Source: Bacillota bacterium
GTDB lineage: Bacteria > Bacillota > Clostridia > Lachnospirales > CAG-274
Assembly (NCBI GenBank): GCA_017483905.1
Contig: JAFUUG010000357.1
Location: forward strand, 1 to 14,182
DNA: 14,182 nt
Direction of reading: 5' to 3'
Positions 1,044 to 14,182 of this stretch are shown in pieces. Each line of letters begins with the position of its first letter. The first letter of the stretch is position 1. The notes beneath the pieces were generated by a model, which did no database searches, had not been told where the DNA came from, and worked only from the letters and a program-made list of their open reading frames with translations. The position numbers were made by a program, and so were the translations under genes.

Positions 1044-1077
1044 TATGCTATGCTGTCAATAATATAAGACGAACCTA

Positions 1078-1118
1078 AAAGGGCTGCATGGATAAAACTG
1101 TGTAAGCCCTTTATTTTA
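1078..1118 (+). terminator. candidate rho-independent terminator after S1 gene
   Basis: An 8-bp stem pairs aaagggct (1078-1085) with agcccttt (1105-1112) and is followed by the T-rich run ttatttta. The 19-nt loop is larger than ideal. Confidence 0.45.
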
Positions 1119-1139
1119 TATCTTTGATTGGAGAAAGAA

Positions 1140-1958
1140 ATGGAGAATATAAACAATATAGATGATGCGATAAATAATCAGGCATTGCTTGATGCCATAA
1201 ATGCTCATAAGGAAGAACAGAGCGGAAATACACAGGCAAAAATGGCGATAGAACTTGTAAGGGCAAAATTCTTCACACCTATGGAGGCTACGATCGCACC
1301 CGATGAAAACGGAAATTATCAGCTTAACAAAGGAGAAGAAATAAAGCTTAATGTAATAAATTCAGCTGACGGGGAAAAGTATCTGCTTGCATTTACAAGC
1401 TGGGAAGAACTTGAAAAATGGGAAAAAAAGGAAAATCAGCAGACACTTTTATCACGCTTTGCAGATTATGAAAGAATGTTATTTGAAAGCGGCGATCTTG
1501 AATGTAAGGGATTTGTCATTGATCCGTTCGGAGCAAATGTAGTACTCACAAGAAGAAATATGATAGCTGTAAGAGATGTCCTTGAAGAGATGGACTATGA
1601 GGAAGAGGAAGAACAACAGATGCCGCAGCCGGTACAGAAACCCGAGGAAAAGAATGTGGTATCTGTAAAGGTCAGTGAATTAAAGGATTGTCCGAAAGAA
1701 CTTTCAGAGGCTATAAGAAAACAGCTTGAAAGCGATAAAGGGATAAAAAAGGCATATTTGCAGTCGATTGTAAAGGGCGAAGAACCGGGCTATCTTGTTG
1801 CGGTGGAATTTGAGGGTGATAAGGATAAAATATTAAGAGGCGTGCTTGAGGTGGCGAAACATTATTTGCCTAAGGGATATTCGATAGATATAATGCCTTG
1901 TGAGGATAAACTGAAAGAGATGCTTGAAAAAGTGACAAAGCCTTTTTTTGAGAGATAA
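1140..1958 (+). CDS. SseB-like (enhanced serine sensitivity) family protein
   Basis: I prefer ATG 1140 over the track's TTG 1128, because GGAGA at 1130-1134 lies 5 nt upstream of 1140. The N-terminal half has the SseB-type pattern (KFFTPME...EKYLLAFTSWEELEKW). An acidic linker follows, then a second SseB_C-like domain (KKAYLQSIVKGEEPGYLVAVEFEGD). The family call is from memory of the motif only. Confidence 0.6.
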   Translation: MENINNIDDAINNQALLDAINAHKEEQSGNTQAKMAIELVRAKFFTPMEATIAPDENGNYQLNKGEEIKLNVINSADGEKYLLAFTSWEELEKWEKKENQQTLLSRFADYERMLFESGDLECKGFVIDPFGANVVLTRRNMIAVRDVLEEMDYEEEEEQQMPQPVQKPEEKNVVSVKVSELKDCPKELSEAIRKQLESDKGIKKAYLQSIVKGEEPGYLVAVEFEGDKDKILRGVLEVAKHYLPKGYSIDIMPCEDKLKEMLEKVTKPFFER

Positions 1959-1981
1959 CTTTAAGATTTGGGAGAGCAGAT

Positions 1982-3265
1982 ATGAATATTGAAATCAAAA
2001 ATATACTTGCCGTATTGCCAAAAGGCGACGGCTATGAAGTGAAAGAAACAAATATATATATAAAGGGCGATACTATAGAAAAAATAGGTGATAAACCCGA
2101 CGGATTTACTGCGGAAAAGGTACTGGAGGGAAAAGACAGACTTGCGATACCCGGTCTTATCAATTCTCATACGCATACTTATATGTCGGTATTCAGAAAC
2201 CTTGCAGACGATCTTTCTTTTGAGGACTGGCTTTTCAAGAATGTTATGCCGAGAGAAGATAAGCTGACAAATGAAGATGCTTACTGGGGGGCGATGCTTG
2301 CCTGTGCGGAAATGATAAAGACGGGTACTACCACATTTCTTGATATGCATATGTTTAAAAATCAGACGATAAATGCCGCAAACAAAACTGGAATGAGAGC
2401 GGTAATATCAAGAGGTCTTGCGGGAAACGGCATGGACGAGGGGGCTGTGAGAAGACTTAACGAGGCTAAGGAAGAAATGGAATATGCAAAGGATATGAGC
2501 AGGATCTCATTTATGCTTGCTCCTCATGCGATTTATACCTGTGACAGAGAGTATTTGCAGATAATCGTTCAGGAGGCAAAGAAATTAAATTTGCCTATAC
2601 ATCTGCATTTATCCGAGGCTAAGAGCGAAAATGCACAGACGATGGAAAGCGATGGTATATCGGCTGTTGAATATGTTGAAAAACTGGGGATATTTGATGT
2701 AAAGACGATACTTGCGCACTGCGTACAGGTAAATGAAAAGGATATGGATATACTTGCAAAACATAATGTAAGTGTCGCGGCAAATCCTAAGAGCAATCTT
2801 AAACTTGCAAACGGTATCGCACCGATATATCAGATGCTTGATAAGGGGATAAATGTCTGTATAGGAACGGACAGCTGCGCAAGCAACAATACTCTGAATA
2901 TGTTTTCGGATATGAACTATACAGCACTTCTTCACAAGGGTACGAATGGCGATCCTACGGCTGTGACGGCTGAACAGGTGCTTAAAATGGCAACGGAGAA
3001 TGCGGCAAAGGCTCTTGATCTTGAAAATGTGACGGGAGCTATAAGAGAGGGACTTAAAGCGGATATTGCGATACTTGATCTTAACTGTCCTCAGTTTGTG
3101 CCAAGACAAAATCTTGTAGCGGCACTTTCTTATTCGGCAAACGGTTCGGAGGTCGATACGGTCATAATCGATGGCGAGATAGTGATGGAAAACGGAAAGC
3201 TTACGCTCGTTGACGAGGCTGAGATATATGCGAAAGCTAATGAAGTAATGGAAAGGCTTAAATAA
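1982..3265 (+). CDS. mtaD: 5-methylthioadenosine/S-adenosylhomocysteine deaminase (amidohydrolase superfamily)
   Basis: GGGAGAG lies upstream of ATG 1982. The metal-binding motif INSHTHTYMS is followed by FRNLADDLSFEDWL...YWGAMLACAEMIKTGTTTFLDMH. HLHLSE, AHCV and GTDSCASNN follow in the canonical order for the MtaD/TRZ-ATZ subgroup. Confidence 0.8.
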   Translation: MNIEIKNILAVLPKGDGYEVKETNIYIKGDTIEKIGDKPDGFTAEKVLEGKDRLAIPGLINSHTHTYMSVFRNLADDLSFEDWLFKNVMPREDKLTNEDAYWGAMLACAEMIKTGTTTFLDMHMFKNQTINAANKTGMRAVISRGLAGNGMDEGAVRRLNEAKEEMEYAKDMSRISFMLAPHAIYTCDREYLQIIVQEAKKLNLPIHLHLSEAKSENAQTMESDGISAVEYVEKLGIFDVKTILAHCVQVNEKDMDILAKHNVSVAANPKSNLKLANGIAPIYQMLDKGINVCIGTDSCASNNTLNMFSDMNYTALLHKGTNGDPTAVTAEQVLKMATENAAKALDLENVTGAIREGLKADIAILDLNCPQFVPRQNLVAALSYSANGSEVDTVIIDGEIVMENGKLTLVDEAEIYAKANEVMERLK

Positions 3266-3292
3266 AAAACTTAAATAAGAAAGGCTTATAAA

Positions 3293-4141
3293 ATGATTAA
3301 ACAATTTTTTAAGGATCTCGGAAATACGATAGCTGCGACTATCAAGCCGATGCTGCTTTTTGTCGTGGTGATGGACATATGGTCGGTGCTTATATATGGG
3401 TTTGATATTGTAAGGCTTATTGCTGTGACACTGTTATTCTTTGCGGTACTTATTGCGATGTATGCTGTTATACTGCTTATAAATACGGGAAAATACGGCA
3501 AAGTTACAAGGATAGAAAATGAAAGGGGCAGATACAGCGATGAATATTATCAGGCAGTGGAAGAGATAGCTGAAAAGATGAATAAACCGAGCAAGCAGCT
3601 TCAGAGAGCAAACATTCTGATACTTCTTGCGGCACATTACCTTGAGGGCGGAAGAGTGGACAATGCACTTGAAACACTGAGAAAAATAGATAACGGTCAG
3701 CTTGTGCGGATACCCGATACACAACCGGTAAAATCAATGTATTACTGCGTTCTGATAGGAATAATGATAAAGAAAGGGGATATTTCTTCTGCTATAACGG
3801 TATGTGAGCAAAATAAGAAATTATTTGACAAGCATATCACTAATCTCAGGTATGGGGCGGAAATAAATCATATACTTTGTATTATTGAGTTTTTCAAGGG
3901 CAATTACAGCGGGGTATTAAAGGAAATGGAAGAGAGGGTATATAAGAAAGACCCTATTGACAAAGTAAGCGACTATTTGCTATGCTATAGATGTGAAATG
4001 CGACTCGGGGATAGCGTAAAAGCCGATGAGTATATGAGAAAAGCAGAGAATGAACTTGAAAAATGCAAGTGGTTCCATAAAGAGATAATGACACCTAAGA
4101 TAACGGCATTGAAGGAAAATGAACTTGAATACAAATATTAA
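3293..4141 (+). CDS. hypothetical membrane-anchored protein with helical-repeat (TPR-like) C-terminal region
   Basis: The ORF encodes 282 aa. Two N-terminal hydrophobic helices are present (MLLFVVVMDIWSVLIYGF and LIAVTLLFFAVLIAMYAVILLI). The rest is alpha-helical and repeat-like, and I recognise no family. Confidence 0.6.
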   Translation: MIKQFFKDLGNTIAATIKPMLLFVVVMDIWSVLIYGFDIVRLIAVTLLFFAVLIAMYAVILLINTGKYGKVTRIENERGRYSDEYYQAVEEIAEKMNKPSKQLQRANILILLAAHYLEGGRVDNALETLRKIDNGQLVRIPDTQPVKSMYYCVLIGIMIKKGDISSAITVCEQNKKLFDKHITNLRYGAEINHILCIIEFFKGNYSGVLKEMEERVYKKDPIDKVSDYLLCYRCEMRLGDSVKADEYMRKAENELEKCKWFHKEIMTPKITALKENELEYKY

Positions 4142-4177
4142 GAATATAATATTTCCTTAAAACAAGGGGTGAGCACT

Positions 4178-5203
4178 ATGAAAAAAATATTGGTGGTAGA
4201 TGACAGCAGGGTGAATCTTGCGTTTGTAACGCAAATGCTGGAGGGTGAATATACCGTTGTGCAGTCAACATCTGCGATGAAAGCAATAAATATAATGCAG
4301 AAAGATGAAATAGACTTAGTCCTTCTTGATATACAGATGCCCGAAATGGACGGCATAGAGGCTATTAAGATAATGAAAAGCATAAATTCGATAAAAGATA
4401 TACCGATCATTTTCCTAACCGGAAGAACTTCAAGCGAAACGGAAATAGAATGTCTTAACTGCGGCGCGGTGGATTTTATAACGAAACCTTTTGTTCCCGA
4501 AATAGTTAAATTAAGGATAGAGAGGACACTTGAACTTGACGAATATCACAGAAACAACGAAAAGATAATAAGCGAGAAAGTGGATAACTCTCAGAAGATA
4601 AATGTAAAGCTGATAAAGAGAATGGCTGATATTATCAGAAACAGGGATTACTGGAAAAAATCGAAGGTCGATTTTGATGACATAATGAATCTTTTCCTTG
4701 CGGAAATAAAGAGTACGGGGATATACAGAGAAGAACTCAGCGAAGACGTTGTATTTGCACTTAGAAATTACGGAATACTATATGATATAGGAAAGATAAG
4801 CATTGATGAGAGAATACTTCTCAAAGAGGGAAAACTGACGGACAGTGAATTTGAAAAAATGAAAAAACACTGCGAGAGGGAAACGGAAATAGTTGAAGAT
4901 ATATTCAAGAATGAAAAATATTATCCCGCTATATCCGATTTTATGAGCTATCATCATGAAAACTGGGACGGCAGCGGATATCCTAACGGATTGAAGAAAA
5001 AGGAGATACCCGTTGCGGCAAGGATAGTTTCCATGATAGGTGAATATATGGCTCTGCGTGAGGAAAAGCCTTACAGAAATGCTTATTCGATAAAAGAGGC
5101 TATAGATATATTAAAGAGTGAGAAAGATACAAAGTATGATCCTATGCTCGTGGGGATATTCTGCGAGGCGATAAAGAAAAGAAACGATAATGATAAGGTA
5201 TGA
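4178..5203 (+). CDS. response regulator: CheY-like receiver domain fused to an HD-GYP domain with a degenerate HD motif
   Basis: I prefer ATG 4178 (AAGGGGTGA about 8 nt upstream) over the track's GTG 4169. The receiver domain shows VVDD, LLDIQMPEMDG, FLTG and ITKPF. The C-terminal domain shows YHHENWDGSGYP (the GYP signature), but YDIGK replaces HDIGK. Confidence 0.8.
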   Translation: MKKILVVDDSRVNLAFVTQMLEGEYTVVQSTSAMKAINIMQKDEIDLVLLDIQMPEMDGIEAIKIMKSINSIKDIPIIFLTGRTSSETEIECLNCGAVDFITKPFVPEIVKLRIERTLELDEYHRNNEKIISEKVDNSQKINVKLIKRMADIIRNRDYWKKSKVDFDDIMNLFLAEIKSTGIYREELSEDVVFALRNYGILYDIGKISIDERILLKEGKLTDSEFEKMKKHCERETEIVEDIFKNEKYYPAISDFMSYHHENWDGSGYPNGLKKKEIPVAARIVSMIGEYMALREEKPYRNAYSIKEAIDILKSEKDTKYDPMLVGIFCEAIKKRNDNDKV

Positions 5204-5270
5204 TGCGTTTTGATTTTCAAAATAAGAATGGATATGATATATTAAGCTGTGTTTTGTAAAAATAAATTTA

Positions 5271-5299
5271 TTGACAAAATGAAAGTAATGGTATATAGT
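5271..5299 (+). promoter_or_regulatory. sigma-A type promoter for sRNA-1
   Basis: TTGACA (5271-5276), an exact 17-nt spacer, then TATAGT (5294-5299). The upstream flank is AT-rich. No ORF follows; there is only a short structured transcript that ends in a terminator. Confidence 0.6.
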
Positions 5300-5319
5300 A
5301 AAAATAGGCTTAGGCTGAT

Positions 5320-5330
5320 GCTGTTATGTA
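5320..5330 (+). repeat. direct repeat copy A (gctgttatgta), inside sRNA-1 loop
   Basis: This is an exact 11-mer also found at 5474-5484. The two transcripts are convergent, so a DNA direct repeat makes the two RNAs complementary. Confidence 0.8.
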
Positions 5331-5351
5331 CCATAAGCTAACACCAAAATA

Positions 5352-5387
5352 CCCCTCATAAGGTTGGGACTTGTGAGGGGCTTTTTT
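5352..5387. terminator. bidirectional rho-independent terminator shared by sRNA-1 and toxin-1 mRNA
   Basis: The stem pairs cccctcataag (5352-5362) with cttgtgagggg (5370-5380), with one G-U pair, around the 7-nt loop gttggga. It is followed by cttttttact on the + strand and by uauuuugg on the - strand. Confidence 0.7.
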
Positions 5388-5409
5388 ACTGTGCTTTTGT
5401 CGGTATGTG

Positions 5410-5499
5410 TTATCTGTCAAGCCACCTGCAGATGTAATGACTTACGATACCTGCTCCGACAGATACTATAAAAGCTGTTATGTATTCCAAGTCTAACAT
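5410..5499 (-). CDS. candidate type I toxin, Fst/PepA1-like small hydrophobic peptide (29 aa): MLDLEYITAFIVSVGAGIVSHYICRWLDR
   Basis: It is not in the ORF track because it is too short. It runs from ATG 5499 to TAA 5412-5410, with a weak SD (AGGAAA) 5 nt upstream. It has a single hydrophobic helix and a charged C-terminus. The I-x-A-x-(I/V)-(I/V)-S...WL-(S/D)-R layout resembles S. aureus PepA1 (MLIFVHIIAPVISGCAIAFFSYWLSRRNTK, recalled from memory) and the Fst family. Confidence 0.55.
   Translation of the reverse strand: MLDLEYITAFIVSVGAGIVSHYICRWLDR
5474..5484 (+). repeat. direct repeat copy B (gctgttatgta), complement lies in toxin-1 codons 6-9
   Basis: This is an exact copy of 5320-5330. 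Flanking partial similarity (cca, ag, ctaaca at 5493-5498 versus 5338-5343) extends the potential duplex to the UG of the toxin AUG. Confidence 0.8.
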
Positions 5500-5530
5500 C
5501 TATTTCCTGACGGAAGAAACCGACAACAAT

Positions 5531-5559
5531 ATTATACAAAATTTTCATGTTTTATGTAA
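5531..5559 (-). promoter_or_regulatory. sigma-A type promoter for toxin-1 mRNA
   Basis: On the minus strand: TTACAT (5559-5554), a 17-nt spacer, then TATAAT (5536-5531). The predicted TSS is near 5524, which gives a leader of about 25 nt. Confidence 0.5.
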
Positions 5560-5771
5560 TGCTTATTTTTTGCAGTTTATTGGCACATTTCTTTTGGAGT
5601 TTTCATTTCCCGGGAATTTAATTTCAAATAATTTATTCATTTGTTTTTAATTATTTTCTAATTATTGAATAAGGACAGTTTAATAAATGAGGTGTAATAT
5701 ATACACATAAAGAAAAACAAAGCAAATAAAAAACAAATAAATAAAGCAAATAAAATAGGGAGATGACAGTT

Positions 5772-6488
5772 ATGGCAATAGAAGTTTTTAACAGATATGA
5801 ACATAAATATATTTTAAATCAGCAGCAGTACGATGAAATGATAAAGGTAATGAATGAACATATGAATCCCGATCCTTATAACAAAGGTGGCAAGCCTTAC
5901 ACGATAACGAACATTTATTATGATACACAGGACGATCACCTTATAAGGGCTTCTCTTTCAAAACCGATATACAAGGAAAAATTAAGACTGAGAGCTTACG
6001 GAGTGCCTAAGGACGGACAGAAAGTTTTTCTGGAGATAAAGAAGAAATACAACGGTATAGTGAACAAGAGAAGAACGACACTTAAACTCGATGAGGCTTA
6101 CAAATTTGTTGGTTCGGGGGAAAAACCCCAAATAGAAAGCTATATGAACAAGCAGGTAATAAACGAGATATCGTATTTCTTAAAGGTGTATGATCTGAAG
6201 CCGAAATTATATCTTGCCTATGACAGGATAGCTTACTTTGAAAAGGGAAATGATGATCTGAGGATCTCTTTCGATCAGAATATACGTTCAAGAAGAGAAG
6301 ATGTTCAGCTTGAGATAGGAGATCACGGAAATCTTCTTCTTGAAGAGGGACAATATCTGATGGAGATAAAGACATCGCTTGCTATGCCGTTATGGCTTAC
6401 ACATACGCTTGCAAGGCTCAATCTTAAAAGACAGAGTTTTTCTAAATACGGTGCGGAATTTAAGAATACCGTAAATCAGGGTGCATAA
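5772..6488 (+). CDS. VTC-domain protein (triphosphate-tunnel / polyphosphate-polymerase-like domain)
   Basis: I prefer ATG 5772 because GGGAG (5758-5762) abuts the track's ATG 5763 with no spacing. The N-terminal FNRYEHKYIL fits the beta-1 acidic/Lys signature of tunnel-fold (CYTH/TTM) enzymes. Later features are basic beta-strands (RLRAYG, FLEIKKKYNGIVNKRR), RISFDQNI and LMEIK. The layout matches bacterial VTC-domain proteins as I remember them. Confidence 0.65.
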   Translation: MAIEVFNRYEHKYILNQQQYDEMIKVMNEHMNPDPYNKGGKPYTITNIYYDTQDDHLIRASLSKPIYKEKLRLRAYGVPKDGQKVFLEIKKKYNGIVNKRRTTLKLDEAYKFVGSGEKPQIESYMNKQVINEISYFLKVYDLKPKLYLAYDRIAYFEKGNDDLRISFDQNIRSRREDVQLEIGDHGNLLLEEGQYLMEIKTSLAMPLWLTHTLARLNLKRQSFSKYGAEFKNTVNQGA

Positions 6489-6548
6489 TGAAAAGAATAT
6501 ACAATAAAGAATATATAATAATGAGGGAAAAGAAACGGAGTGGATATC

Positions 6549-7220
6549 ATGAATGAATTATTTAACAGCATTTTAGCAAATACATCAAGTGAATTGACGG
6601 TGGTCGATTCTGTAATAACAATGGCGACGGCACTGGTATTCGGACTGGTGATAGCGTTTACTTATTATAAGACACAATCGGATGCTCTGTATCAGAGAAG
6701 TCTTTCCATAACACTTGTAATGCTGCCTGTGATACTAGCAACGATAATAACATTTGTCGGCAGCGATGTTGCAAAGGCATTCAGTCTTGCAGGTACTCTT
6801 ACGATAATCAGATTCAGAAGCGCACCCGGAGATCCTAAGGATATAGGTTTCATCTTCTTCGATATAGCGGCAGGACTTGCCTGTGGTGCGGGATTATATG
6901 GATATGGCGCAATATTTGTGATAGTTGTTTGTGCAGTTCTCTTTGCAAGTGAAAAAGTCGGTTTATTTGAAAAGAAATCTATCGAAAAGACATTGAAGAT
7001 AACTATTCCGGAAGACCTTAACTATGAGGGGGCTTTCGATGATATACTTAATAAATATACAACAAAACATACGATGATGAAGATAAAGACGACAGATCTC
7101 GGTTCTCTCTTTGAATTAAGCTATGATATATCAATGAAGAAGAATCAGAATGAACAGGAATTTCTCAATGATATAAGATGCAGGAACGGAAATCTTAATA
7201 TAATACTTTCGGTAAAATAA
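6549..7220 (+). CDS. DUF4956-like integral membrane protein (usual partner of bacterial VTC-domain proteins)
   Basis: I prefer ATG 6549 (GGAG at 6537-6540, 8-nt spacing) over the track's GTG 6540. It has four to five hydrophobic helices: VITMATALVFGLVIAFTYY, SITLVMLPVILATIITFVG, FSLAGTLTIIRF and IGFIFFDIAAGLACGAGLYGYGAIFVIVVCAVLFA. A soluble tail of about 80 aa follows. The family name is recalled, not searched. Confidence 0.6.
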   Translation: MNELFNSILANTSSELTVVDSVITMATALVFGLVIAFTYYKTQSDALYQRSLSITLVMLPVILATIITFVGSDVAKAFSLAGTLTIIRFRSAPGDPKDIGFIFFDIAAGLACGAGLYGYGAIFVIVVCAVLFASEKVGLFEKKSIEKTLKITIPEDLNYEGAFDDILNKYTTKHTMMKIKTTDLGSLFELSYDISMKKNQNEQEFLNDIRCRNGNLNIILSVK

Positions 7221-7225
7221 ATTGA

Positions 7226-7254
7226 TTGACAAGAGAGGGGAAAAGTGATATTAT
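7226..7254 (+). promoter_or_regulatory. sigma-A type promoter (extended -10) for sRNA-2
   Basis: TTGACA (7226-7231), a 17-nt spacer, then TATTAT (7249-7254). A TG at 7246-7247 gives TGnTATTAT. It starts 6 nt after the DUF4956 stop codon. Confidence 0.6.
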
Positions 7255-7266
7255 ATAAGTACAAAA

Positions 7267-7297
7267 GGAACACTGTCAAACAATAGACGGTGACCCC
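7267..7297 (+). repeat. inverted repeat, left arm (5' leader of sRNA-2)
   Basis: The left arm reads ggaacactgtcaaac-aataga-cggtgacccc. The reverse complement of 7501-7539 reads ggaacactttcaaac-ttaactacggtagg-cggtgacccc. The blocks match 14/15 and 10/10 around a variable linker. Confidence 0.8.
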
Positions 7298-7315
7298 AAG
7301 ATTTAGTTATTGAAA

Positions 7316-7355
7316 ATAACCGCAGTCATTGGTGTTGAGGGCGGTTATTTTTTTT
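7316..7355. terminator. bidirectional terminator shared by sRNA-2 and toxin-2 mRNA
   Basis: The stem pairs ataaccgc (7316-7323) with gcggttat (7341-7348), and an inner tca/tga pairing is possible. Seven T residues follow on the + strand. On the - strand the tail is the weaker uuucaauaac. The toxin-2 stop codon (7345-7347) lies inside the 3' arm. Confidence 0.6.
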
Positions 7356-7446
7356 CACTGCTATCACGCTTGCCTACTCTGTAACCGAGCTCAAAGCAAG
7401 CAAGACAAAGACTTACTAAGCCTATAAGTTCGCCGAGTGTCAGCAT
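7345..7446 (-). CDS. candidate type I toxin / holin-like small hydrophobic peptide (33 aa): MLTLGELIGLVSLCLACFELGYRVGKRDSSEKK
   Basis: It is not in the ORF track. It runs from ATG 7446 to TAA 7347-7345. A strong SD (AAGGGGGTG, G-run at 7458-7454) lies 7 nt upstream. It has one hydrophobic helix and a Lys/Arg/Glu-rich tail, the typical type I toxin format. Confidence 0.5.
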   Translation of the reverse strand: MLTLGELIGLVSLCLACFELGYRVGKRDSSEKK

Positions 7447-7500
7447 AATAACACCCCCTTTTTCATTGGAATAGATATGTAAATCACCTCCTATGAAACA

Positions 7501-7539
7501 GGGGTCACCGCCTACCGTAGTTAAGTTTGAAAGTGTTCC
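7501..7539 (-). repeat. inverted repeat, right arm (5' leader of toxin-2 mRNA)
   Basis: See 7267-7297. Because the two transcripts converge, both RNAs begin with nearly the same sequence (same sense, not complementary). Confidence 0.8.
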
Positions 7540-7545
7540 GAATTA

Positions 7546-7574
7546 AATATAGCATATATTTTGGGTAATGTCTA
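7546..7574 (-). promoter_or_regulatory. sigma-A type promoter for toxin-2 mRNA
   Basis: On the minus strand: TAGACA (7574-7569), a 17-nt spacer, then TATATT (7551-7546). The predicted TSS is near 7539, exactly where the repeat arm GGAACAC begins. Confidence 0.45.
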
Positions 7575-7680
7575 TAGGATTTATATTTCACTTTTGTTAC
7601 AGGGATATAAAGGAAATTTTATGGAAATATTCTTTAAGAGGGGTGTAATATAGGGGAAGATGAGGTATTATATAATAAAA

Positions 7681-7712
7681 ACCGCCGATAACTGTTATCG
7701 ACGGCTTTTACT
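7681..7712. terminator. bidirectional terminator ending the minus-strand cassette
   Basis: The hairpin pairs ccgccgataa with ttatcgacgg (one mismatch) around the loop ctg. On the minus strand it is followed by uuuuuauu, and on the plus strand by uuuuacuuuuu. It lies 26 nt downstream of the 45-aa ORF stop codon. Confidence 0.65.
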
Positions 7713-7737
7713 TTTTATAGAAAGATATTAATTCTAA

Positions 7738-7875
7738 TTAGCTTATTACATCGGAAGAGTAATCTATTTCGCCTATTACACCAAGATTGTTTCCTGTACC
7801 GTTGCTTGTGGTTACAAGGGTTTCTTCGGAAACAAATGTTACAATTTCAAATTCTGGTTTATCATAATTTTTCAT
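7738..7875 (-). CDS. unannotated small acidic peptide (45 aa): MKNYDKPEFEIVTFVSEETLVTTSNGTGNNLGVIGEIDYSSDVIS
   Basis: It is not in the ORF track. It runs from ATG 7875 to TAA 7740-7738. GGAGG lies 10 nt upstream (ggaggaaaataataaATG). It starts 24 nt after the stop of the 278-aa gene and is followed directly by the terminator. It has no Cys and no signal peptide. Confidence 0.55.
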   Translation of the reverse strand: MKNYDKPEFEIVTFVSEETLVTTSNGTGNNLGVIGEIDYSSDVIS

Positions 7876-7899
7876 TTATTATTTTCCTCCTATAAGAAA

Positions 7900-8736
7900 T
7901 TATTCGAGTGAAATAAGTTCTGTCATTGATTTTGCAGCAGTATCATCAGGAACATTAGCTACTGTAACGGCAACATAGTATACGCCATCTTCTTCAGGTG
8001 CGATTATGTTACCATTTGAATCTATTATTTTTTTGTATACTACAGTTTGAGAATCGTAACTTTTATTTCCAACTGTAAATACTACACTTTCTTTAGATGA
8101 CGTGTCTGCAATCGCTATTTTTCCTATAGCATAGTATTTTTCGTTTTCGACAACAACAAAATCATTATTTTCGGAATCTTTGTAGATAACAGGGTCAAAA
8201 ATCTTATCATTTGTGATTTTGATTGTTATTTTATTTATGGTCGATTCGACCTTATTGTCGCTTGTATTTGTTCCGTCATTATATACAGTTAAATTCAATT
8301 TTCCGTCATTTGTATCAGTTGCATTAAATTCTATTTCAACTGATTTCGCTACTGTAGCTTCGGAGCTGTCGAGTTTGTATATTCTGCCGGCTTTAGCTGT
8401 AGTACCAACTAAATTGATTTTTCCAGCAGAACCAACAGGTACGGGGATGTCAATAGAACCTTGGTCTGTACTGTTACCAATTTTTATGTATTTATTTTTG
8501 TGCAAAACAACTTTACCATTTGAAAATAAAATACCTTTAAAATTATCACCAGAACTTAAAGATTCACCATCGCCACCTGTTTGTGTCCATGTAGCTGTTT
8601 TATTTGCATCTGTTACTGCATAACTAAAATATTGGTCGTAATTTTTATTATCAGCCAACACTGATATACTCATCAAAGTTAAAGTAGCACCAATTATAAT
8701 AGTTGTTACTACAGTTTTCAATAATGATTTTCTCAT
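7900..8736 (-). CDS. secreted hypothetical protein (beta-rich, Asn/Thr/Asp-rich, 278 aa)
   Basis: A strong SD is present (aaggaggtaattaaaaaATG). The signal peptide MRKSLLKTVVTTIIIGATLTLMSISVLA-DN has a basic n-region, a hydrophobic core and an A-x-A-like cleavage site. The mature part looks like two beta-sandwich modules. There is no LPXTG and I recognise no family. The gene is markedly AT-rich. Confidence 0.75.
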   Translation of the reverse strand: MRKSLLKTVVTTIIIGATLTLMSISVLADNKNYDQYFSYAVTDANKTATWTQTGGDGESLSSGDNFKGILFSNGKVVLHKNKYIKIGNSTDQGSIDIPVPVGSAGKINLVGTTAKAGRIYKLDSSEATVAKSVEIEFNATDTNDGKLNLTVYNDGTNTSDNKVESTINKITIKITNDKIFDPVIYKDSENNDFVVVENEKYYAIGKIAIADTSSKESVVFTVGNKSYDSQTVVYKKIIDSNGNIIAPEEDGVYYVAVTVANVPDDTAAKSMTELISLE

Positions 8737-8941
8737 TTTTTAATTACCTCCTTGTTACCTTGGTTTTTGCTTTTTTTGTAATATAATTTGCAAATTAATC
8801 AATTTTACGGTAATTGATGAACCGTTATGCACTATCCTCCTTTTATTTACTCGGTTTTGCGTGTAACTCTATCCTGCAGAGAAAGAGGTACTGCAAAGCC
8901 TGTATTTATGCAAACACCCAACGGGTGAAAGGCATACAAAA

Positions 8942-9373
8942 TCAAATTTTTCCCTCATATTTAAGCTGCCGATACATTTTATCGAAAGTATTCGGACTTG
9001 CACCGATAGCGGAACGGGCGGCATTTTTATTTATTTCGCCGTTTTCGAGTTTTTTGAATATTTCTATATAGTCATCGGGTTCATATTTTTTTCTTCTGCC
9101 GAATTTAACACCGCTTATTCTTGCGGCTTCTATGCCCTCGGCTTGTCTTTCCTTGCGGTATTTCCTGTTATTTACCTGAATAACCGTAAGCATTTGAATG
9201 AGAATACCGTAGAGATGTTCTTCCATGAGGATCTTTCCCTCGGGAGTGTCATAATATGGCATAAATTGTTTAAGCGTATCGGAAATTCGTTTGCGTGTTT
9301 CCGCACGGCATACGTCCATCATTTCCTCGTAATTCAAGCCTTTTTCAAAAAGTTCTTCCAATTCTTTATTCAT
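8942..9373 (-). CDS. resolvase-type HTH protein: serine-recombinase E-helix plus HTH without the catalytic domain
   Basis: I prefer ATG 9373 (GGGGAAGAG upstream) over the track's GTG 9418, which has no SD. The C-terminal 80 aa or so match the resolvase/invertase pattern (RKERQAEGIEAARISGVKFGRRKK, then the HTH NKNAARSAIGASPNTFDKMYRQL). The N-terminal 60 aa or so show no YxRVS-type nucleophile motif. Confidence 0.6.
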   Translation of the reverse strand: MNKELEELFEKGLNYEEMMDVCRAETRKRISDTLKQFMPYYDTPEGKILMEEHLYGILIQMLTVIQVNNRKYRKERQAEGIEAARISGVKFGRRKKYEPDDYIEIFKKLENGEINKNAARSAIGASPNTFDKMYRQLKYEGKI

Positions 9374-9447
9374 AATATCTCTTCCCCAATTCACTGCAAA
9401 CCTATAATTTAACAGCACTATACATAATAAACAAAAAACATACTTAT

Positions 9448-9476
9448 ATTATACCCATATACGCTCTAATTGTCAA
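9448..9476 (-). promoter_or_regulatory. perfect-consensus sigma-A promoter for the HTH gene / cassette
   Basis: On the minus strand: TTGACA (9476-9471), a 17-nt spacer (attagagcgtatatggg), then TATAAT (9453-9448). An A/T-rich UP-like tract lies upstream. Confidence 0.65.
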
Positions 9477-9560
9477 TAAAATTCGGATATTTTTTGTTAA
9501 AAATAAACATCACTGCTAAAGTATAATAAAGCAGTAATTTTGATAAAAAAGTAACAAAAA

Positions 9561-9600
9561 AAGTGACCGTAAATATTTTATTTTACGATCACTTTTTTTA
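9561..9600. terminator. bidirectional terminator downstream of guanine deaminase gene
   Basis: A 13-bp stem pairs aagtgaccgtaaa (9561-9573) with tttacgatcactt (9582-9594), with one mismatch. T-runs flank it on both strands. Confidence 0.7.
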
Positions 9601-9666
9601 TGGGAAAGGAGCAGGAAATAAATTTTCGGGAAAAATGATGTTTTTAAGGATAATTTATTGTTCGGC

Positions 9667-10914
9667 TTATAAATCAAAGGTAAGTTCTTTTCCGTTTAAG
9701 TAGCGGTTTGTTATTTTTCCGTCGACGGAATATATGAATTTTTCAAGTCGTTCTGTCGGAGCGAGAGTTGTATTTTCACTTTCTATTATGAGTGCGTCAA
9801 AGGAGTTTCCAATCTCAAAACTGCCTGTGTCGGTAAAGAAATTACGGCTTCCTTTTGTTGCAAGATAGAATGATTCACTGAGGGATAAAGGGGTATGCTC
9901 GGGGTGCTTTCTGTGATACAGTTTTGAGAGCTGTATGCACGATACAATCTGTCTGCGCATATCAAGGCTGCTGCCTGCGGAAATATCGGAGGCAAGGGCA
10001 ACATCTATGCCATAGTCAAGATTTCTTCTGAGGGGCATTATGCCGCTTGCAAGATTCATATTGGATTCGGGACAATGGGCGATGGTCGTTCCGTATTTTT
10101 TTAATATTTCAAGTTCCTGTTCGCTTGTGTGTACGGAGTGAGCCATTATCGTCTTATTTTTACGCAAAAGTCCGAAATGTTCATAGACTTGCGTGAAAGA
10201 GTCGATTTCCGGATGCAGAGCTTTTACCCATTCTATCTCCGAGGGATTTTCGTTTAAGTGGGATTGAACGGGAAGATCGTATTTTTCGGCAATATCTGCA
10301 AGTTTTGTCATGAGTTTTCCTGTTACGGACGGTACAAATCGGGGTGTTACGATGAATTTTACACGATCTGAAGATGAATATTTTTCGGCAAAATAAAGGG
10401 TGTCGCTTACCGAATTTTCAGTGGTTTCGGAAAGAGAAGCCGCAGAATTTCTGTCCATATTGACTTTTCCGATATAGGCATAAAGGCGAGAGCGTTCAAA
10501 AAGCTCAAAAAGTTTATCGGTGGAGTCTTTGAATACGGTGGCAAATACACATGAGTGAAATGTGCCGAAAAGCCATAAGTCGTGTATGAATTTTTTGTAT
10601 ATCGTAACGGCATATTCCGTATCGGAAAATTTGCTTTCGGCGGGGAATGTGTAGGTTTCAAGCCATGGGAGCAATTCAAGATAATATCCGATGCCTATAT
10701 TTTCATACTGAGGGGCATGGGTATGGATATCGGAAAAAGAGGGAATAACAAGTTTTCCCGTAAAATCACAAACAGGGATATTTTCTTTCGGAGAAGATGA
10801 TATTTCGGCAACTTTTCCGTTATCTATGAATATATAGCTGTTTTCGTGAATAGCGAAATTGTCTTTTTCGGGGGTGTGTATGATGTCACCTTTTATTGAA
10901 AACATAGAGGTCAC
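9667..10914 (-). CDS. guaD: guanine deaminase (amidohydrolase-fold)
   Basis: DIHTHAPQY...LELLPWLETYTFPAE, GKVNMDRNSA, VTPRFVPS, HLNENPSEIEWVKALHPE, AHSVH, AHCPESNMNLASG and ASDISAGS run co-linear with my recollection of E. coli GuaD (HIHYPQ, GKVMMDRNAP, ITPRFAPT, HLCENKDEIAWVKSLYPD, FCPTSNLYLGSG). Confidence 0.8.
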   Translation of the reverse strand: MTSMFSIKGDIIHTPEKDNFAIHENSYIFIDNGKVAEISSSPKENIPVCDFTGKLVIPSFSDIHTHAPQYENIGIGYYLELLPWLETYTFPAESKFSDTEYAVTIYKKFIHDLWLFGTFHSCVFATVFKDSTDKLFELFERSRLYAYIGKVNMDRNSAASLSETTENSVSDTLYFAEKYSSSDRVKFIVTPRFVPSVTGKLMTKLADIAEKYDLPVQSHLNENPSEIEWVKALHPEIDSFTQVYEHFGLLRKNKTIMAHSVHTSEQELEILKKYGTTIAHCPESNMNLASGIMPLRRNLDYGIDVALASDISAGSSLDMRRQIVSCIQLSKLYHRKHPEHTPLSLSESFYLATKGSRNFFTDTGSFEIGNSFDALIIESENTTLAPTERLEKFIYSVDGKITNRYLNGKELTFDL

Positions 10915-10918
10915 TCCT

Positions 10919-11593
10919 TTATATTTTTATGGGATAATTGAAAAGGTCAAACGGTTCAAGGTCGGGGAGTGGGGCTGAAAGAGATACCTTTTCTTTTGTT
11001 TCGGGGTGGAGAAATTCAAGCTTTGAAGCGAAAAGACCGATCCTTTCAAATCTTCGTTTCCTTTGTATCGCTTTATTATATTTCGTATCGCCCCAAAGGG
11101 GGAGAGATGCGTTTGCAAGCTGCACTCTTATCTGATGGTGTCTTCCGGTATGGAGAAGAACATTTAAGAGGCTTAGAGTGCCGTATCGGGAAGTTTGCGT
11201 TTCGGATATTTTTTTGTATTCAAGGATCGCTTCTTTTCCGCCTGTTGTGCCTTTATTTACGATTTTTGAAATGTTCAGACGATGATTGACGATAACGGTA
11301 TCGCACAATTTGTCGTATTCTTTTGCACTGCCGCATGAAACGGCGGTATATTCTTTTATAAAATTACCGTTTTGTATCTCACCGCTTATGTATGAGGCGG
11401 CTTTTTTATTTTTGGCATAAAGTATAATGCCGCCTACGGGTTTATCAAGGCGGTGAACGGTATAGAGAGTGGTGGAAAGCTCCTTTTCGAGAAGTTCGCA
11501 AAGGGAGGGGTCACCGTTTTTTTCACTTTGGCTTGCTATTGCGAAATCTTTTATTACTGCAATAAAAGAATCGTCATTATATAGTATATTCAT
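10919..11593 (-). CDS. RluA-family pseudouridine synthase (no S4 domain)
   Basis: I prefer ATG 11593 (AAAGGAA SD) over the track's TTG 11686. The catalytic motif HRLDKPVGGIILYAK is present. The C-terminal HTGRHHQIRVQL motif is typical of the RluA/RluC/RluD family. Its stop codon lies 4 nt before the guaD ATG. Confidence 0.8.
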   Translation of the reverse strand: MNILYNDDSFIAVIKDFAIASQSEKNGDPSLCELLEKELSTTLYTVHRLDKPVGGIILYAKNKKAASYISGEIQNGNFIKEYTAVSCGSAKEYDKLCDTVIVNHRLNISKIVNKGTTGGKEAILEYKKISETQTSRYGTLSLLNVLLHTGRHHQIRVQLANASLPLWGDTKYNKAIQRKRRFERIGLFASKLEFLHPETKEKVSLSAPLPDLEPFDLFNYPIKI

Positions 11594-11663
11594 AAATAAT
11601 TCCTTTCGTTTTTTTTGACTTTGTCGTTTATTGAAATAATTTTGTTTTTTTCTGCGACTGTAT

Positions 11664-11696
11664 TTTACAAAAATTTCATTAGTCAACGGATATAAT
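11664..11696 (+). promoter_or_regulatory. candidate spoIIE promoter with over-long 21-nt spacer
   Basis: TTTACA (11664-11669), a 21-nt spacer, then TATAAT (11691-11696), about 30 nt upstream of the spoIIE ATG. One weak 0A-box-like TGTCGTT lies at 11622-11628. Confidence 0.35.
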
Positions 11697-11725
11697 TAAA
11701 TATTATATTATACCGGAGGTAAAAT

Positions 11726-14044
11726 ATGCAAAAGAAAAAATACAAAAGAAAAATTAAAAGGTCGGTTTTTATTATAAGCTTTGTAAGTTTTTTTCTTGCA
11801 AGGGCAGTTCTCTTTGATTCGATAGATCCCGTATGTATTGCCTTTCTCGGCTGCTTCTGCGGTATGGGTGCAAGTATATGGTCTTCTTTTATAATGACGG
11901 TGATCGGGCTTATAACAAATTCCGGAGGGATATATTTATCAAAGTATCTGATAAGTGCGATATTTGTATTGATATTCAATACTGTGCTGCAAAAGAGGAT
12001 AAAATATTCTCCTGCCGCAAAAGCATTCACATCGTCTGCCTCGATACTTTCGGGGGGTCTTATTATGGCGATGCTGAACGACTTTTCTTTATATTATACC
12101 GTAATTGCGGTACTGGAATCAATACTTACTTTTGGGATAACGATAATTTTTGATACGGGGATAAGATTTCTTACGGACAGGAAAAAGAGGATAGTTGCAA
12201 GTCAGGAGGAGATGATAAGTCTTTCACTTATTGCGGCAAGCATTATAATAGGTGCTGCGGATATACATATAGGCGATATACCGATAGTTTATGCGCTTTG
12301 CATTACGCTTACAATGTTCGTTTCGTACTGTACTCATGCGGCGGTGGGGGCATCGGCGGCGATATTTACGGGACTTTTGCTGATAATGTCAAGAAATGCG
12401 GCTTCGGAAAGTGCGGTTATACTTGCGGGAGCATCGGCTGCGGCAGGGGCATATAATAAGAAAAACAAGATCGTTTTTATACTTATATATGTCAGTGTCG
12501 GGGCTTTTATGCTGTATTTCCTGAAAAAGTCCATGTTCGATGTGTCTATGCTTATATCTGTGGTGCTTGGGGTCGCATTATTTCTTGTCATACCTGCACA
12601 GGCATCTTATATTTTCAGAAATTCTTCGGAAAATGATACATCGGATACGGAGGCATATATAGAGAGATTGAAAGATGTGACAAAACACAGGCTGAACAGT
12701 TTCTCTTCATCTTTTGAAAAGCTTGCAAAGACTTTTTCGGTGCTTTCGGAAAAAAGATCGTCACTTGATAAAAATGATATATCAAGGCTTATAGACGATA
12801 TATCGGACAGGACTTGTAAAAAGTGTAGTATGCGGTATTTTTGCTGGGAAAAGAATTTTTACAAGACGTATCAGACTATATTTATGCTGCTTAATTCTCT
12901 TGAAAGTTACGGATATCTTACGAAAGAACTGCTGCCGGTGGAATTTATGAAAGATTGTGCCGATCCGTTGGGGTTTATAGAGAATACGAACAAATTATAT
13001 GAGGTATACAAGACAAATCTTGCATGGGAAAATAAAATGATAGAAAGCCGTGAACTTGTGGCACAGCAGCTTACAGGGGTTTCAAGGATAATAGATTCTC
13101 TCTCCCGTGAGATAGATTTTGACCTTAAATTCAAGGAAAATATATCTGCGGCGGTAAAGAGGGAACTTGAAGATATAGGAGAGGAAAACGTGAGCGTGAC
13201 GGCAAGCGAAAACAGGGAAGAAAAGACGGAACTTCTGATAAAGCATCGCTGCTGCGGCTGCGAAAGAGCCTGTACATCAAGGATAATCCCCGCCGTTAAT
13301 AAGGTGCTTGGAAAAACTATGGCAAGGACAAGCTGTGACTGCGTTATATCGAAAAACAATATATGCACGCTGAGATTATGTGAGGCTAAAAAATTTCATA
13401 TAACAACTTCGGTCGCAAGGTCAAGCAAGAATGTCGGAAAAGTATCGGGGGATTCGTATTCTTTTATGCCGATAGGCGACGGAAAATATATGCTGCTTTT
13501 AAGCGACGGAATGGGTTCGGGAATGAAAGCTCATGAGGAAAGTGCGGCTACGATAGAATTATTTGAAGACTTTATGAGTGCGGGATTTGACAGGAAAACG
13601 GCGATAGATATAATAAATTCGGTGCTTGTGATGCGTTCGGCGGGGGATAATTTCTCTACGATGGATATATGCACGATAGATCTTTATACGGGGGCTGCGG
13701 AATTCGTAAAGATAGGGGCAGCGGCGGCATTTATCCTGAGAGATGGGAATGTTGATGTGATAGGATCTTCTTCGCTTCCGATAGGTATACTTAATAATGT
13801 GGAGGCAGAAACGAGAAAAAGACGATTGAAAGACGGCGATATAATAGTGATGGTGACAGATGGGATAACGGACGCTTTTTCGGGAAAGGAAAATAAGAGC
13901 GATGAGATAAAAAGTATACTGAGAAAATATCACGGAACGAATCCCGGCGAACTTGCCGATCACATAATAGAAAGAGCGAAAGAGGCAGGAGGGATAAGCG
14001 ATGATATGACAGTACTTACTGCAAGAATATGGAAAAGTGTATAG
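11726..14044 (+). CDS. spoIIE: stage II sporulation protein E (membrane-bound PP2C serine phosphatase)
   Basis: GGAGG lies 7 nt upstream. The N-terminal 300 aa or so carry about 10 hydrophobic helices, followed by a central regulatory region. The C-terminal PP2C/SpoIIE domain shows GDSYSF, LLLSDGMGSG, FSTMDIC, IVMVTDGI and DDMTVL. The 772-aa size and architecture are diagnostic. Confidence 0.9.
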   Translation: MQKKKYKRKIKRSVFIISFVSFFLARAVLFDSIDPVCIAFLGCFCGMGASIWSSFIMTVIGLITNSGGIYLSKYLISAIFVLIFNTVLQKRIKYSPAAKAFTSSASILSGGLIMAMLNDFSLYYTVIAVLESILTFGITIIFDTGIRFLTDRKKRIVASQEEMISLSLIAASIIIGAADIHIGDIPIVYALCITLTMFVSYCTHAAVGASAAIFTGLLLIMSRNAASESAVILAGASAAAGAYNKKNKIVFILIYVSVGAFMLYFLKKSMFDVSMLISVVLGVALFLVIPAQASYIFRNSSENDTSDTEAYIERLKDVTKHRLNSFSSSFEKLAKTFSVLSEKRSSLDKNDISRLIDDISDRTCKKCSMRYFCWEKNFYKTYQTIFMLLNSLESYGYLTKELLPVEFMKDCADPLGFIENTNKLYEVYKTNLAWENKMIESRELVAQQLTGVSRIIDSLSREIDFDLKFKENISAAVKRELEDIGEENVSVTASENREEKTELLIKHRCCGCERACTSRIIPAVNKVLGKTMARTSCDCVISKNNICTLRLCEAKKFHITTSVARSSKNVGKVSGDSYSFMPIGDGKYMLLLSDGMGSGMKAHEESAATIELFEDFMSAGFDRKTAIDIINSVLVMRSAGDNFSTMDICTIDLYTGAAEFVKIGAAAAFILRDGNVDVIGSSSLPIGILNNVEAETRKRRLKDGDIIVMVTDGITDAFSGKENKSDEIKSILRKYHGTNPGELADHIIERAKEAGGISDDMTVLTARIWKSV

Positions 14045-14101
14045 AGAGATAAATAAAGGTCAATAATAAAGCTGTTTGAAAATAATTTTTCGGAGGGCTT
14101 T

Positions 14102-14182
14102 ATGGATAATAACAAAAAGGTGATAATGGTTGAGGGAAACGGGTCAAAATGGTTTGAAAAAGCTATATTTATAGTGGGAGAT
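14102..14182 (+). CDS. hypothetical protein, 5' fragment (continues past window end)
   Basis: GGAGG (14092-14096) lies 5 nt upstream of ATG 14102. The frame stays open to the window edge (MDNNKKVIMVEGNGSKWFEKAIFIVGD). This is too short to assign a family. Confidence 0.45.
   Translation, partial: MDNNKKVIMVEGNGSKWFEKAIFIVGD

Follow-up and report, generated by a model that had tools for sequence, protein, structure and literature searches.

Results

A convergent peptide and RNA module at 7226-7574

The analysis concerns a compact convergent module at positions 7226-7574 of a 14,182-nucleotide (nt) stretch of Bacillota DNA (GenBank assembly GCA_017483905.1, contig JAFUUG010000357.1, positions 1 to 14,182 of the forward strand; the whole stretch is called the window), in which an open reading frame (ORF) for a 33-amino-acid (aa) peptide on the minus strand faces a candidate small RNA (sRNA) on the plus strand, an arrangement reminiscent of type I toxin-antitoxin (TA) modules. 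The toxin candidate (MLTLGELIGLVSLCLACFELGYRVGKRDSSEKK; 7345..7446, minus) starts with ATG, ends with a TAA stop at 7347..7345 and is preceded by the Shine-Dalgarno (SD) sequence GGGGGUG (GGGGGTG in DNA; 7452..7458, minus), with a spacer of 7 nt from G-run to ATG, as described in the first-pass annotation of this DNA. Residues 2-22 of the peptide are hydrophobic and predicted to form an N-terminal transmembrane helix, which is followed by the K/R/E tail RVGKRDSSEKK; the peptide carries two motifs, C14xxC17 and G21xxxG25. The exact 33-aa sequence is known from only two contigs, both of the same organism.

Each strand has its own promoter. The toxin promoter TAGACA-17-TGcTATATT (7546..7574, minus) matches the consensus at 10 of 12 positions with the TG present, and is weaker than the extended -10 promoter of the sRNA, TTGACA-17-TGaTATTAT (7226..7254, plus; 11 of 12 positions, TG present). 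With ends deduced from promoter and terminator, the toxin mRNA would be ~227 nt long (7312..7539, minus) with a leader of 93 nt, close to the ~95 nt estimated before. The candidate antitoxin sRNA would be ~95 nt long (7261..7355, plus; ends deduced in the same way) and would consist of a 5' hairpin domain, an A/U-rich linker and the terminator. Both deduced RNAs are predicted to be strongly folded (mRNA: -73.2 kcal/mol, z -4.2; sRNA: -29.2 kcal/mol, z -4.0), and in neither case was the value equaled by any of 200 dinucleotide shuffles.

The two RNAs have a common bidirectional intrinsic terminator at 7313..7351 (arms 7313-7328 and 7336-7351), a hairpin previously delimited at 7316-7348, which reads as a terminator on both strands because an A-tract and a T-tract border its GC stem. 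The toxin stop codon had been placed inside this hairpin; it does lie within the A/U extension, but abuts the GC stem rather than entering it, and the last codons of the ORF are situated in the terminator A-tract. Because both RNAs end at the same bidirectional terminator, the 3' ~44 nt of the deduced sRNA are perfectly complementary to the 3' end of the deduced mRNA, in agreement with the earlier claim of a perfectly antisense 3' end, and this complementarity spans the toxin stop codon together with the terminator stem-loop.

Two further features had escaped the first-pass annotation. Within the toxin leader, an anti-SD sequence ACCCCU (7500..7505, minus) is predicted to pair with the SD in both the minimum free energy and the centroid structures, and the predicted probability of the window SD being unpaired is 0.025, compared with 0.215 when the upstream leader is shuffled. 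In addition, a two-part inverted repeat (7267-7281/7525-7539 and 7284-7297/7501-7514) was detected by repeat search and folding: its arm A (GGAACACUGUCAAACAAUAGACGGUGACCCC; 7267..7297, plus) forms the 5' hairpin domain of the sRNA and its arm B (GGAACACUUUCAAAC...GGUAGGCGGUGACCCC; 7501..7539, minus) that of the toxin mRNA. As the two RNAs are transcribed toward each other, the inverted repeat makes them alike and not complementary. Both begin with GGAACACUnUCAAAC...(A/G)GNCGGUGACCCC, which is predicted to fold into a 5'-terminal hairpin in either RNA.

The peptide belongs to a family of gut bacteria and is under selection

A HMMER search of 1.84 billion representative proteins returned five relatives of the window peptide with E values from 1.5e-7 to 3.9e-4. 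A word-index protein search with the padded 33-aa query found only the query itself, and the same search with the relative P0002 found two proteins, giving the loci L203-L206. In another family entry, P0001, the peptide is duplicated internally in tandem. The family follows the pattern M-L-T-x4-I-x3-S-L-C-x2-C-F-x-L-G-Y-x2-G with a polar, basic tail, in which C14, F18, G21, Y22 and G25 are strictly conserved. A degenerate DNA pattern built from the invariant residues occurs once in the window and not at all in shuffled sequence, and it matched at least 120 metagenomic contigs, mostly from the human gut. These matches translate to at least 63 distinct peptides, including that of the window, with lengths of 28-46 aa and nearly all of 30-34 aa.

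A hidden Markov model (HMM) of the 62 non-window peptides scored the window ORF at 46.9 bits (E 2.9e-14) and the next best of 381 window ORF segments at 6.2 bits, a separation to be read with the fact that the pattern used to collect the family was partly derived from the window peptide. Codon-position entropies over 67 distinct ORFs were 0.60, 0.33 and 1.19 for positions 1, 2 and 3, i.e. ~3.6 times higher at position 3 than at position 2, and the same profile was seen on codons not fixed by the search pattern (0.92, 0.49 and 1.41). This profile points to purifying selection on the protein and indicates that the 33-aa ORF is a real gene.

Family databases gave no counterpart. Nothing above noise was found for the family peptides in Pfam, NCBIfam or PHROGs, and the window peptide had no match in Pfam or NCBIfam at E<=10. 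Weak matches to AgrD and ZZ_ADA2 were sub-threshold and driven by hydrophobic or Cys-rich composition, and we rejected both. The peptide had been characterized as type I or holin-like in format; the transmembrane helix and charged tail are there, but the holin-like assignment is unsupported, as neither the Hol-Tox profile (PF16935, E<=10) nor any other Pfam family matched. Rfam yielded no match at gathering score for the window and 14 family loci, and only chance-level matches at E<=10 for the module region and the copy in Lachnospira (Eubacterium) eligens. The literature on type I TA systems in Lachnospiraceae, in the gut and at hsdS loci, searched also with the peptide string, contained no description of the family. 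Both the peptide and the RNA family are therefore new, being absent from Pfam, NCBIfam, PHROGs and Rfam.

The L. eligens copy (L202) lies on the megaplasmid of the type strain ATCC 27750 (NC_012780.1, 160258-160359) and is unannotated in RefSeq; as this strain is in culture, the copy would lend itself well to experiments. It is complete, with toxin, leader, terminator and sRNA, and is situated between two MATE transporter genes; complete modules were also seen on NZ_CP085937.1 and on the gut phage contig MT835527.1.

The layout of the module is conserved across the family

Conservation beyond the ORF was examined in a non-redundant set of 64 modules less than 92% identical to each other. The leader anchor GGUAGGCGG is kept in 49 of them and the sRNA anchor in 55, with both present in 46, so that the peptide and its convergent layout, for which the first-pass annotation had proposed a check in other Clostridia, do recur there together. 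The family toxin promoter is TTGnnn-17-TATAAT and the leader begins at +1 with GGUGCUACC, followed by a variable loop, GGUAGGCGGUUAGCC and an anti-SD (CCUUCUCC or similar). A hairpin that follows in the leader shows clear covariation (CACAGG/CCUGUG, CAGAG/CUCUG, CGGAGGG/CCCUCCG). Farther along, a nearly invariant CAUAGAAAUCC-loop-GGAAAUCU element stands upstream of the SD GGAGG and the ATG; its inner pairs co-vary (UCC/GGA, UCU/AGA, CCU/AGG) around a conserved tandem A.A mismatch, and the window has only a degenerate counterpart of this element. The stop codon is found directly before, or within, AACCGCC...GGCGGUUAUUUUU, and every family member retains the terminator AACCGCC...GGCGGTTATTTTT, in which compensatory changes occur and whose A-tract arm encodes the conserved C-terminal K-T-Q-K of the family peptide. 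On the sRNA strand, GGUGCUACCGAUAGACGGUUAGCC is preceded by the promoter TTGACA-17-TGnTAATAT.

An alignment of 37 sRNAs including that of the window comprises the 5' hairpin and the terminator, with AUAGA.GG invariant and compensatory changes in 9 of the 20 predicted pairs. A covariance model (R1) built from 35 family sRNAs, from which the window was left out, retrieved window positions 7263-7356(+) at full length with 30.9 bits (E about 5e-5), which agrees closely with the ~95-nt plus-strand RNA proposed before and deduced here from promoter and terminator. The L. eligens copy scored 89 bits, and L203 and L206 36-40 bits.

Since RNAalifold gave no useful consensus on the alignment of the whole 5' untranslated region (UTR), the family 5' UTRs were analyzed by per-sequence folding and manual covariation. 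The mean predicted probability of the SD being unpaired was 0.079 compared with 0.307 with shuffled upstream sequence, and 42 of the 44 modules fell below their control. The most frequent predicted partner of the SD is nt 29-33, right after the 5' hairpin, and 23 of the 44 family leaders have a CCUUC/CCUCC anti-SD equivalent just 3' of this hairpin.

The closest relatives of the window peptide, P0002 and P0007, are encoded on L203-L206 in genomic contexts unrelated to DUF4956, the gene adjacent to the module in the window. From the SD-preceded start they are 40 aa long, and the ORF runs through the terminator loop. Gene callers give 66 aa for these ORFs (L203 1704-1904, L206 1250-1450), from an upstream ATG inside the 5' UTR. 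All elements of the window module are conserved in position and order in L203 and L206: the toxin promoter TAGACW-17-TGnTAWAWT, the +1 sequence GGAACA, a GUGACCC element, the GGGGG SD, the ORF, the terminator, the sRNA promoter TTGACW-17-TGnTATWAT and the sRNA start ACAAAA(A)GGAACAC. The promoter assignments of the first-pass annotation (TAGACA-17-TATATT on the minus and TTGACA-17-TGaTATTAT on the plus strand) are thus phylogenetically supported. In the window, L203 and L206, the sRNA promoter is nearer to consensus than the toxin promoter, which would fit the antitoxin excess usual for type I systems. Within the sRNA 5' region of the window there is also a 12/12 sigma-70 match on the minus strand (TTGACA-18-TATAAT, 7279..7250), directed antisense into the 3' end of DUF4956, with a weaker mirror-image match on the plus strand in the other repeat arm (TTGAAA-17-TAGCAT, 7527..7555); neither is conserved in L203 and L206, and both are probably fortuitous. 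Taken from the alignments and predicted folds, the promoters, the terminator, the predicted occlusion of the SD and the predicted sRNA structure are conserved across a large family and in unrelated genomic contexts.

The 5' domains of both RNAs co-evolve

The arms of the inverted repeat differ between lineages and agree within each module. Most modules have GGUUAGCC with GCUACC in both RNAs; L090, L151 and L162 have GGCUAGU with ACUGCC, L091 has GGUAUGC, L118 and L141 have GGUUGGC, L203 has GGUGUAACC, L206 has GGUGUGACCC and the window has GGUGACCCC with GGAACAC, the variant being found in both RNAs in each case. A number of these substitutions preserve the pairing of the hairpin, replacing G-C by A-U or A-U by G-C. 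This pattern of variation indicates that the co-evolving 5' domain of both RNAs is real.

Two modes of contact between the RNAs were considered and rejected. Kissing of the loops of the two 5' hairpins would call for co-variation, which is absent: the mRNA loop varies freely and the sRNA loop is invariant. A second pairing site of the par type over SD and start codon was likewise not supported, as RNAduplex energies were no better than those of shuffled sequences and the sites were inconsistent. The commonest RNAduplex partner of the sRNA 5' domain was the mRNA 5' domain, a pairing that is predicted because both are the same near-palindromic hairpin. The domain could serve in end protection (together with gene conversion), as a second contact site or site of strand exchange, or as a decoy in competition for a common protein.

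Family modules are accessory, and part of the main branch carries a LexA box

Among the 120 family loci listed, 39 have hsdS, hsdM or hsdR no more than 3 kb away, a tyrosine recombinase is present in 27 and TnpV in 11, and nine carry two copies of the module (e.g. int-hsdS-[module]-hsdM-[module] in L095). Copies often sit between hsdM and hsdS beside a tyrosine recombinase (L085, L093, L095, L147, L158; 34 others are near restriction-modification (R-M) genes). This is how phase-variable shufflons are organized, and a precedent for a TA module in an R-M locus is given by the type II phd-doc pair inside the pneumococcal tvr shufflon (PMC6265443).

A LexA box, GAACnnnnGTTT, stands between -35 and -10 in 25 of the 49 toxin promoters from the main family branch. 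Its half-sites are constant and its central four bases vary (CGAACATATGTTTG; e.g. L087, L098, L112, L156 and L202 4860-4900). The box equals the clostridial LexA operator (PMC4234289), and SOS induction of these promoters is therefore predicted, as for tisB. The main-branch sRNA -35 overlaps a weaker GAATATATGTTTG. Neither the toxin promoter of the window nor those of L203 and L206 have the box; GAACnnnnGTTY was not found in the window promoter.

Neighboring genes and a second module in the window

The window belongs to the genome of a spore-forming member of the Clostridia, with genes for SpoIIE, S1 and an amidohydrolase present. Directly upstream of the sRNA promoter lies a VTC-DUF4956 gene pair (5763-6488 and 6540-7220, plus), of which the DUF4956 protein shares 71-76% identity with proteins of uncultured Clostridiales and of Monoglobus metagenome-assembled genomes. 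The gap between the DUF4956 stop (7220) and the -35 of the sRNA promoter is only 5 nt, a circumstance on which the first-pass annotation was silent, and because it contains no terminator, read-through from the DUF4956 operon would also end at the module hairpin and carry the antisense sequence. At the opposite flank, the toxin promoter is insulated by a hairpin at 7680-7711 against the minus-strand genes that precede it. Before this hairpin, there is a 45-aa ORF (MKNYDKPEFEIVTFVSEETLVTTSNGTGNNLGVIGEIDYSSDVIS; 7741..7878, minus) whose ribosome site, AGGAGG, is strong. Predicted as a gene on the sister contig L001, this ORF has no family match and is located directly downstream of the gene for a secreted-looking protein of 278 aa, itself without a Pfam family.

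Upstream of the VTC gene, the window contains another module of similar build (module 1; 5203-5763), the one described so far being module 2. Its 29-aa ORF (MLDLEYITAFIVSVGAGIVSHYICRWLDR; 5410..5499, minus) has an end resembling Fst/PepA1 (...RWLDR) and, as in module 2, the layout is convergent, with a TTGACA-17-TATAGT promoter facing the ORF across a strong terminator (promoters at 5560..5531, minus, and 5271..5299, plus; hairpin at 5352-5380). The 29-aa peptide has no Pfam match. The two modules had been described as independent, and this is borne out by the lack of similarity between their peptides and by the family HMM, which matches only the module 2 ORF in the window. The VTC-DUF4956 operon is thus bracketed by two independent accessory type I-like modules.

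To assess how the modules are distributed, 80 DUF4956 loci of related species (60-76% aa identity) were compared. Both modules are absent within 4 kb of DUF4956 in all 80, and none of these relatives was close enough to retain both flanks of the module; the loci cannot be used as empty sites because the downstream synteny is not conserved either. Judged from its patchy distribution, its absence near DUF4956 in relatives and its enrichment near type I R-M genes and TnpV, module 2 is an accessory element.

Discussion

A probable type I toxin-antitoxin module

Taken together, the conserved elements make it likely that module 2 is a type I TA module of the Gram-positive 3'-overlap kind, a reading drawn from sequence comparison and structure prediction. 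We infer the transcription and the ends of both RNAs, their duplex and its consequences, and the toxicity and membrane targeting of the peptide as follows. The weak sigma-A promoter (7574..7546) would produce the ~227-nt toxin mRNA, whose 93-nt leader would fold such that ACCCCU (7505..7500) covers the SD, keeping the 33-aa membrane peptide untranslated, and the stronger extended -10 promoter (7226..7254) would produce the ~95-nt antisense RNA in excess. The mRNA-sRNA duplex would start at the complementary terminator loops and would lead to cleavage by RNase III, to stronger occlusion of the ribosome site, or to a combination of the two, in the manner of par, txpA/RatA and bsrG/SR4. Upon loss of the sRNA, the peptide would be made and would insert in the membrane with the N-terminus outside and the K/R tail inside, and growth would stop. 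The invariant G21xxxG25 and C14xxC17 of the peptide suggest that it oligomerizes.

Four observations weigh against this reading. The toxin candidate is without detectable similarity to any type I toxin family described so far, Pfam, NCBIfam and PHROGs having yielded no match. The assured complementarity is short (~44 nt) and falls mostly within a terminator hairpin that is stable in both RNAs. No conserved second contact of the sRNA with the translation initiation region was found with RNAduplex. Finally, transcription reading through from DUF4956 would also yield antisense RNA, so that a separate sRNA promoter is not strictly needed at the window locus.

Comparison with described systems

All described Gram-positive systems of this kind overlap at their 3' ends (PMC4147584). 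The first-pass annotation had likened the arrangement to txpA/RatA and bsrG/SR4 of B. subtilis, which share with module 2 a convergent mRNA/sRNA pair that meets only at the 3' ends (predicted in our case), a partly sequestered SD and a location on accessory elements (PMC4147584). The likeness extends to the 3' overlap, but in these systems the overlap measures ~75 and ~120 nt compared with ~44 nt here, TxpA and BsrG are 59 and 38 aa long and unrelated in sequence to the 33-aa peptide, and no 5' domain is common to toxin mRNA and antitoxin as it is in module 2. With an overlap essentially confined to the terminator and with structured 5' domains in both RNAs, the layout is closer to that of par (RNA I/RNA II) than to either txpA or bsrG.

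In par of the Enterococcus faecalis plasmid pAD1 and in par-like loci, the Fst mRNA RNA I and the antitoxin RNA II are transcribed from convergent promoters toward one bidirectional terminator that provides the only true cis overlap (PMC7472228). As in module 2, the toxin of ~33 aa consists of one transmembrane helix (predicted here) and a charged tail, the SD is masked by a leader structure (5'-SL of par), the very 5' end of the mRNA is tied up in a helix (5'-UH of par; both predictions in our case) and a second, dispersed sequence relationship links the 5' parts of the two RNAs (PMC7472228). The nature of this relationship is different: the direct repeats DRa and DRb of par make the RNAs complementary over SD and start codon (PMC7472228), whereas the repeat of module 2 is inverted, makes the RNAs alike and leaves SD and start codon outside. 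The peptide also differs from Fst in lacking PXXXG(C) and the Trp conserved near the tail, Pro and Trp being absent from it altogether, and it has no match to Pfam Fst_toxin at E<=10.

The C. difficile pairs CD2517.1/RCd8, CD2907.1/RCd9 and CD0956.2/RCd10 resemble module 2 as clostridial systems with convergent overlapping transcripts from sigma-A promoters, leaders of ~85 nt, sequestered ribosome-binding sites, an N-terminal transmembrane helix and a basic C-terminal tail (PMC5961336). An association with defense loci exists in both cases, with CRISPR arrays and prophages for the C. difficile modules (PMC5961336) and with type I R-M for the new family. The C. difficile toxins are larger (50-53 aa), their overlaps are longer (130-280 nt) and no sequence similarity to the window peptide was detected. 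With tisB/istR-1 (and dinQ/agrB, symE/symR) only the main branch of the family has something in common, namely a LexA operator in the toxin promoter (PMC4234289, PMC4147584); the tisB/istR-1-type systems of E. coli have divergent genes, pair in trans in the 5' UTR, are Gram-negative and encode unrelated peptides. The shared 5' domain is the sole feature of module 2 without a counterpart in the described systems.

Alternative explanations

The rival that survives best, which we nonetheless consider unlikely, takes the peptide for a benign small membrane protein, such as a subunit or modulator, tuned by a cis-antisense RNA and not part of a TA pair. The conservation of C14, F18, G21, Y22 and G25 could stem from interaction with a specific partner and not from generic damage to membranes, and the peptide is dissimilar to known toxins. 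However, the module, own sRNA included, always occurs by itself; it is found in many unrelated contexts and frequently as two copies, it is enriched in R-M loci and in the neighborhood of transposons with no conserved protein-coding neighbor, its SD is predicted to be tightly occluded and its main-branch promoter has a LexA box. Such traits are typical of type I toxins and not of housekeeping subunits.

Alternatively, the module might be a miniature mobile element, with the inverted repeats as recombination or transposition ends acted on in trans and the ORF and sRNA as cargo or incidental, which we regard as distinctly improbable. The repeat is conserved with arms that evolve in concert, the distribution is patchy over many contexts with multiple copies, and tyrosine recombinases accompany 27 of the 120 loci listed. 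Yet the arms coincide exactly with the +1 regions of the two transcripts, where they form RNA hairpins that show compensatory changes, purifying selection acts on the ORF, and the arms are not the ends of the unit because conservation extends outside them to both promoters. Mobility of this sort would, moreover, complement a TA function and not replace it.

It is still less probable that an independent sRNA is absent altogether, in which case the hairpin would simply end the VTC-DUF4956 operon and the plus-strand promoter would be a chance match in AT-rich DNA. The proximity of the DUF4956 stop to the -35, with no terminator in between, and the frequency of promoter-like matches in the window DNA (20 found, 13.3 expected) speak for such a view, but the same promoter, 5' hairpin and terminator are found in L203, L206, L. 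eligens and dozens of other loci with no DUF4956 upstream. That the ORF encodes the precursor of an AgrD-like secreted signaling peptide has next to no probability: two relatives match the AgrD model TIGR04223 weakly (E 0.04-0.17, 12-14 bits), but these matches stay below the cutoff of 19 bits and cover the hydrophobic helix only, the window peptide itself has no match, and no AgrB-like gene was found nearby in the window or in the family loci examined.

Implications

To our knowledge, type I TA systems have hardly been mapped beyond a few model Firmicutes and enterobacteria, the genes being too small for annotation. If module 2 is a TA module, as we think probable, it represents one that is common in human-gut Clostridia and has remained unannotated even in the reference strain L. 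eligens ATCC 27750. The family provides annotators with a ready profile in the form of the HMM and the covariance model.

A bolder proposal, which we put forward as speculative and consider unlikely to hold, is that the sRNA mimics the structure of the mRNA 5' end and serves as its decoy, or that the two hairpins undergo strand exchange, and that the family is an SOS-inducible accessory that stabilizes R-M loci. In the decoy version, the sRNA would compete for an RNase or an RNA-binding protein that activates or stabilizes the toxin message; in the strand-exchange version, the identical hairpins would lock the RNAs together at both ends. Either way, the 5' domain would represent a regulatory principle not described for type I systems.

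The LexA box of the main branch points to a possible SOS-linked membrane toxin among the dominant commensals of the gut, which may bear on antibiotic tolerance, and the frequent embedding in phase-variable type I R-M loci raises the possibility that the module might stabilize the locus. Should the bolder proposal prove true, the family would be an SOS-inducible addiction or defense accessory that stabilizes phase-variable type I R-M loci in gut Clostridia.

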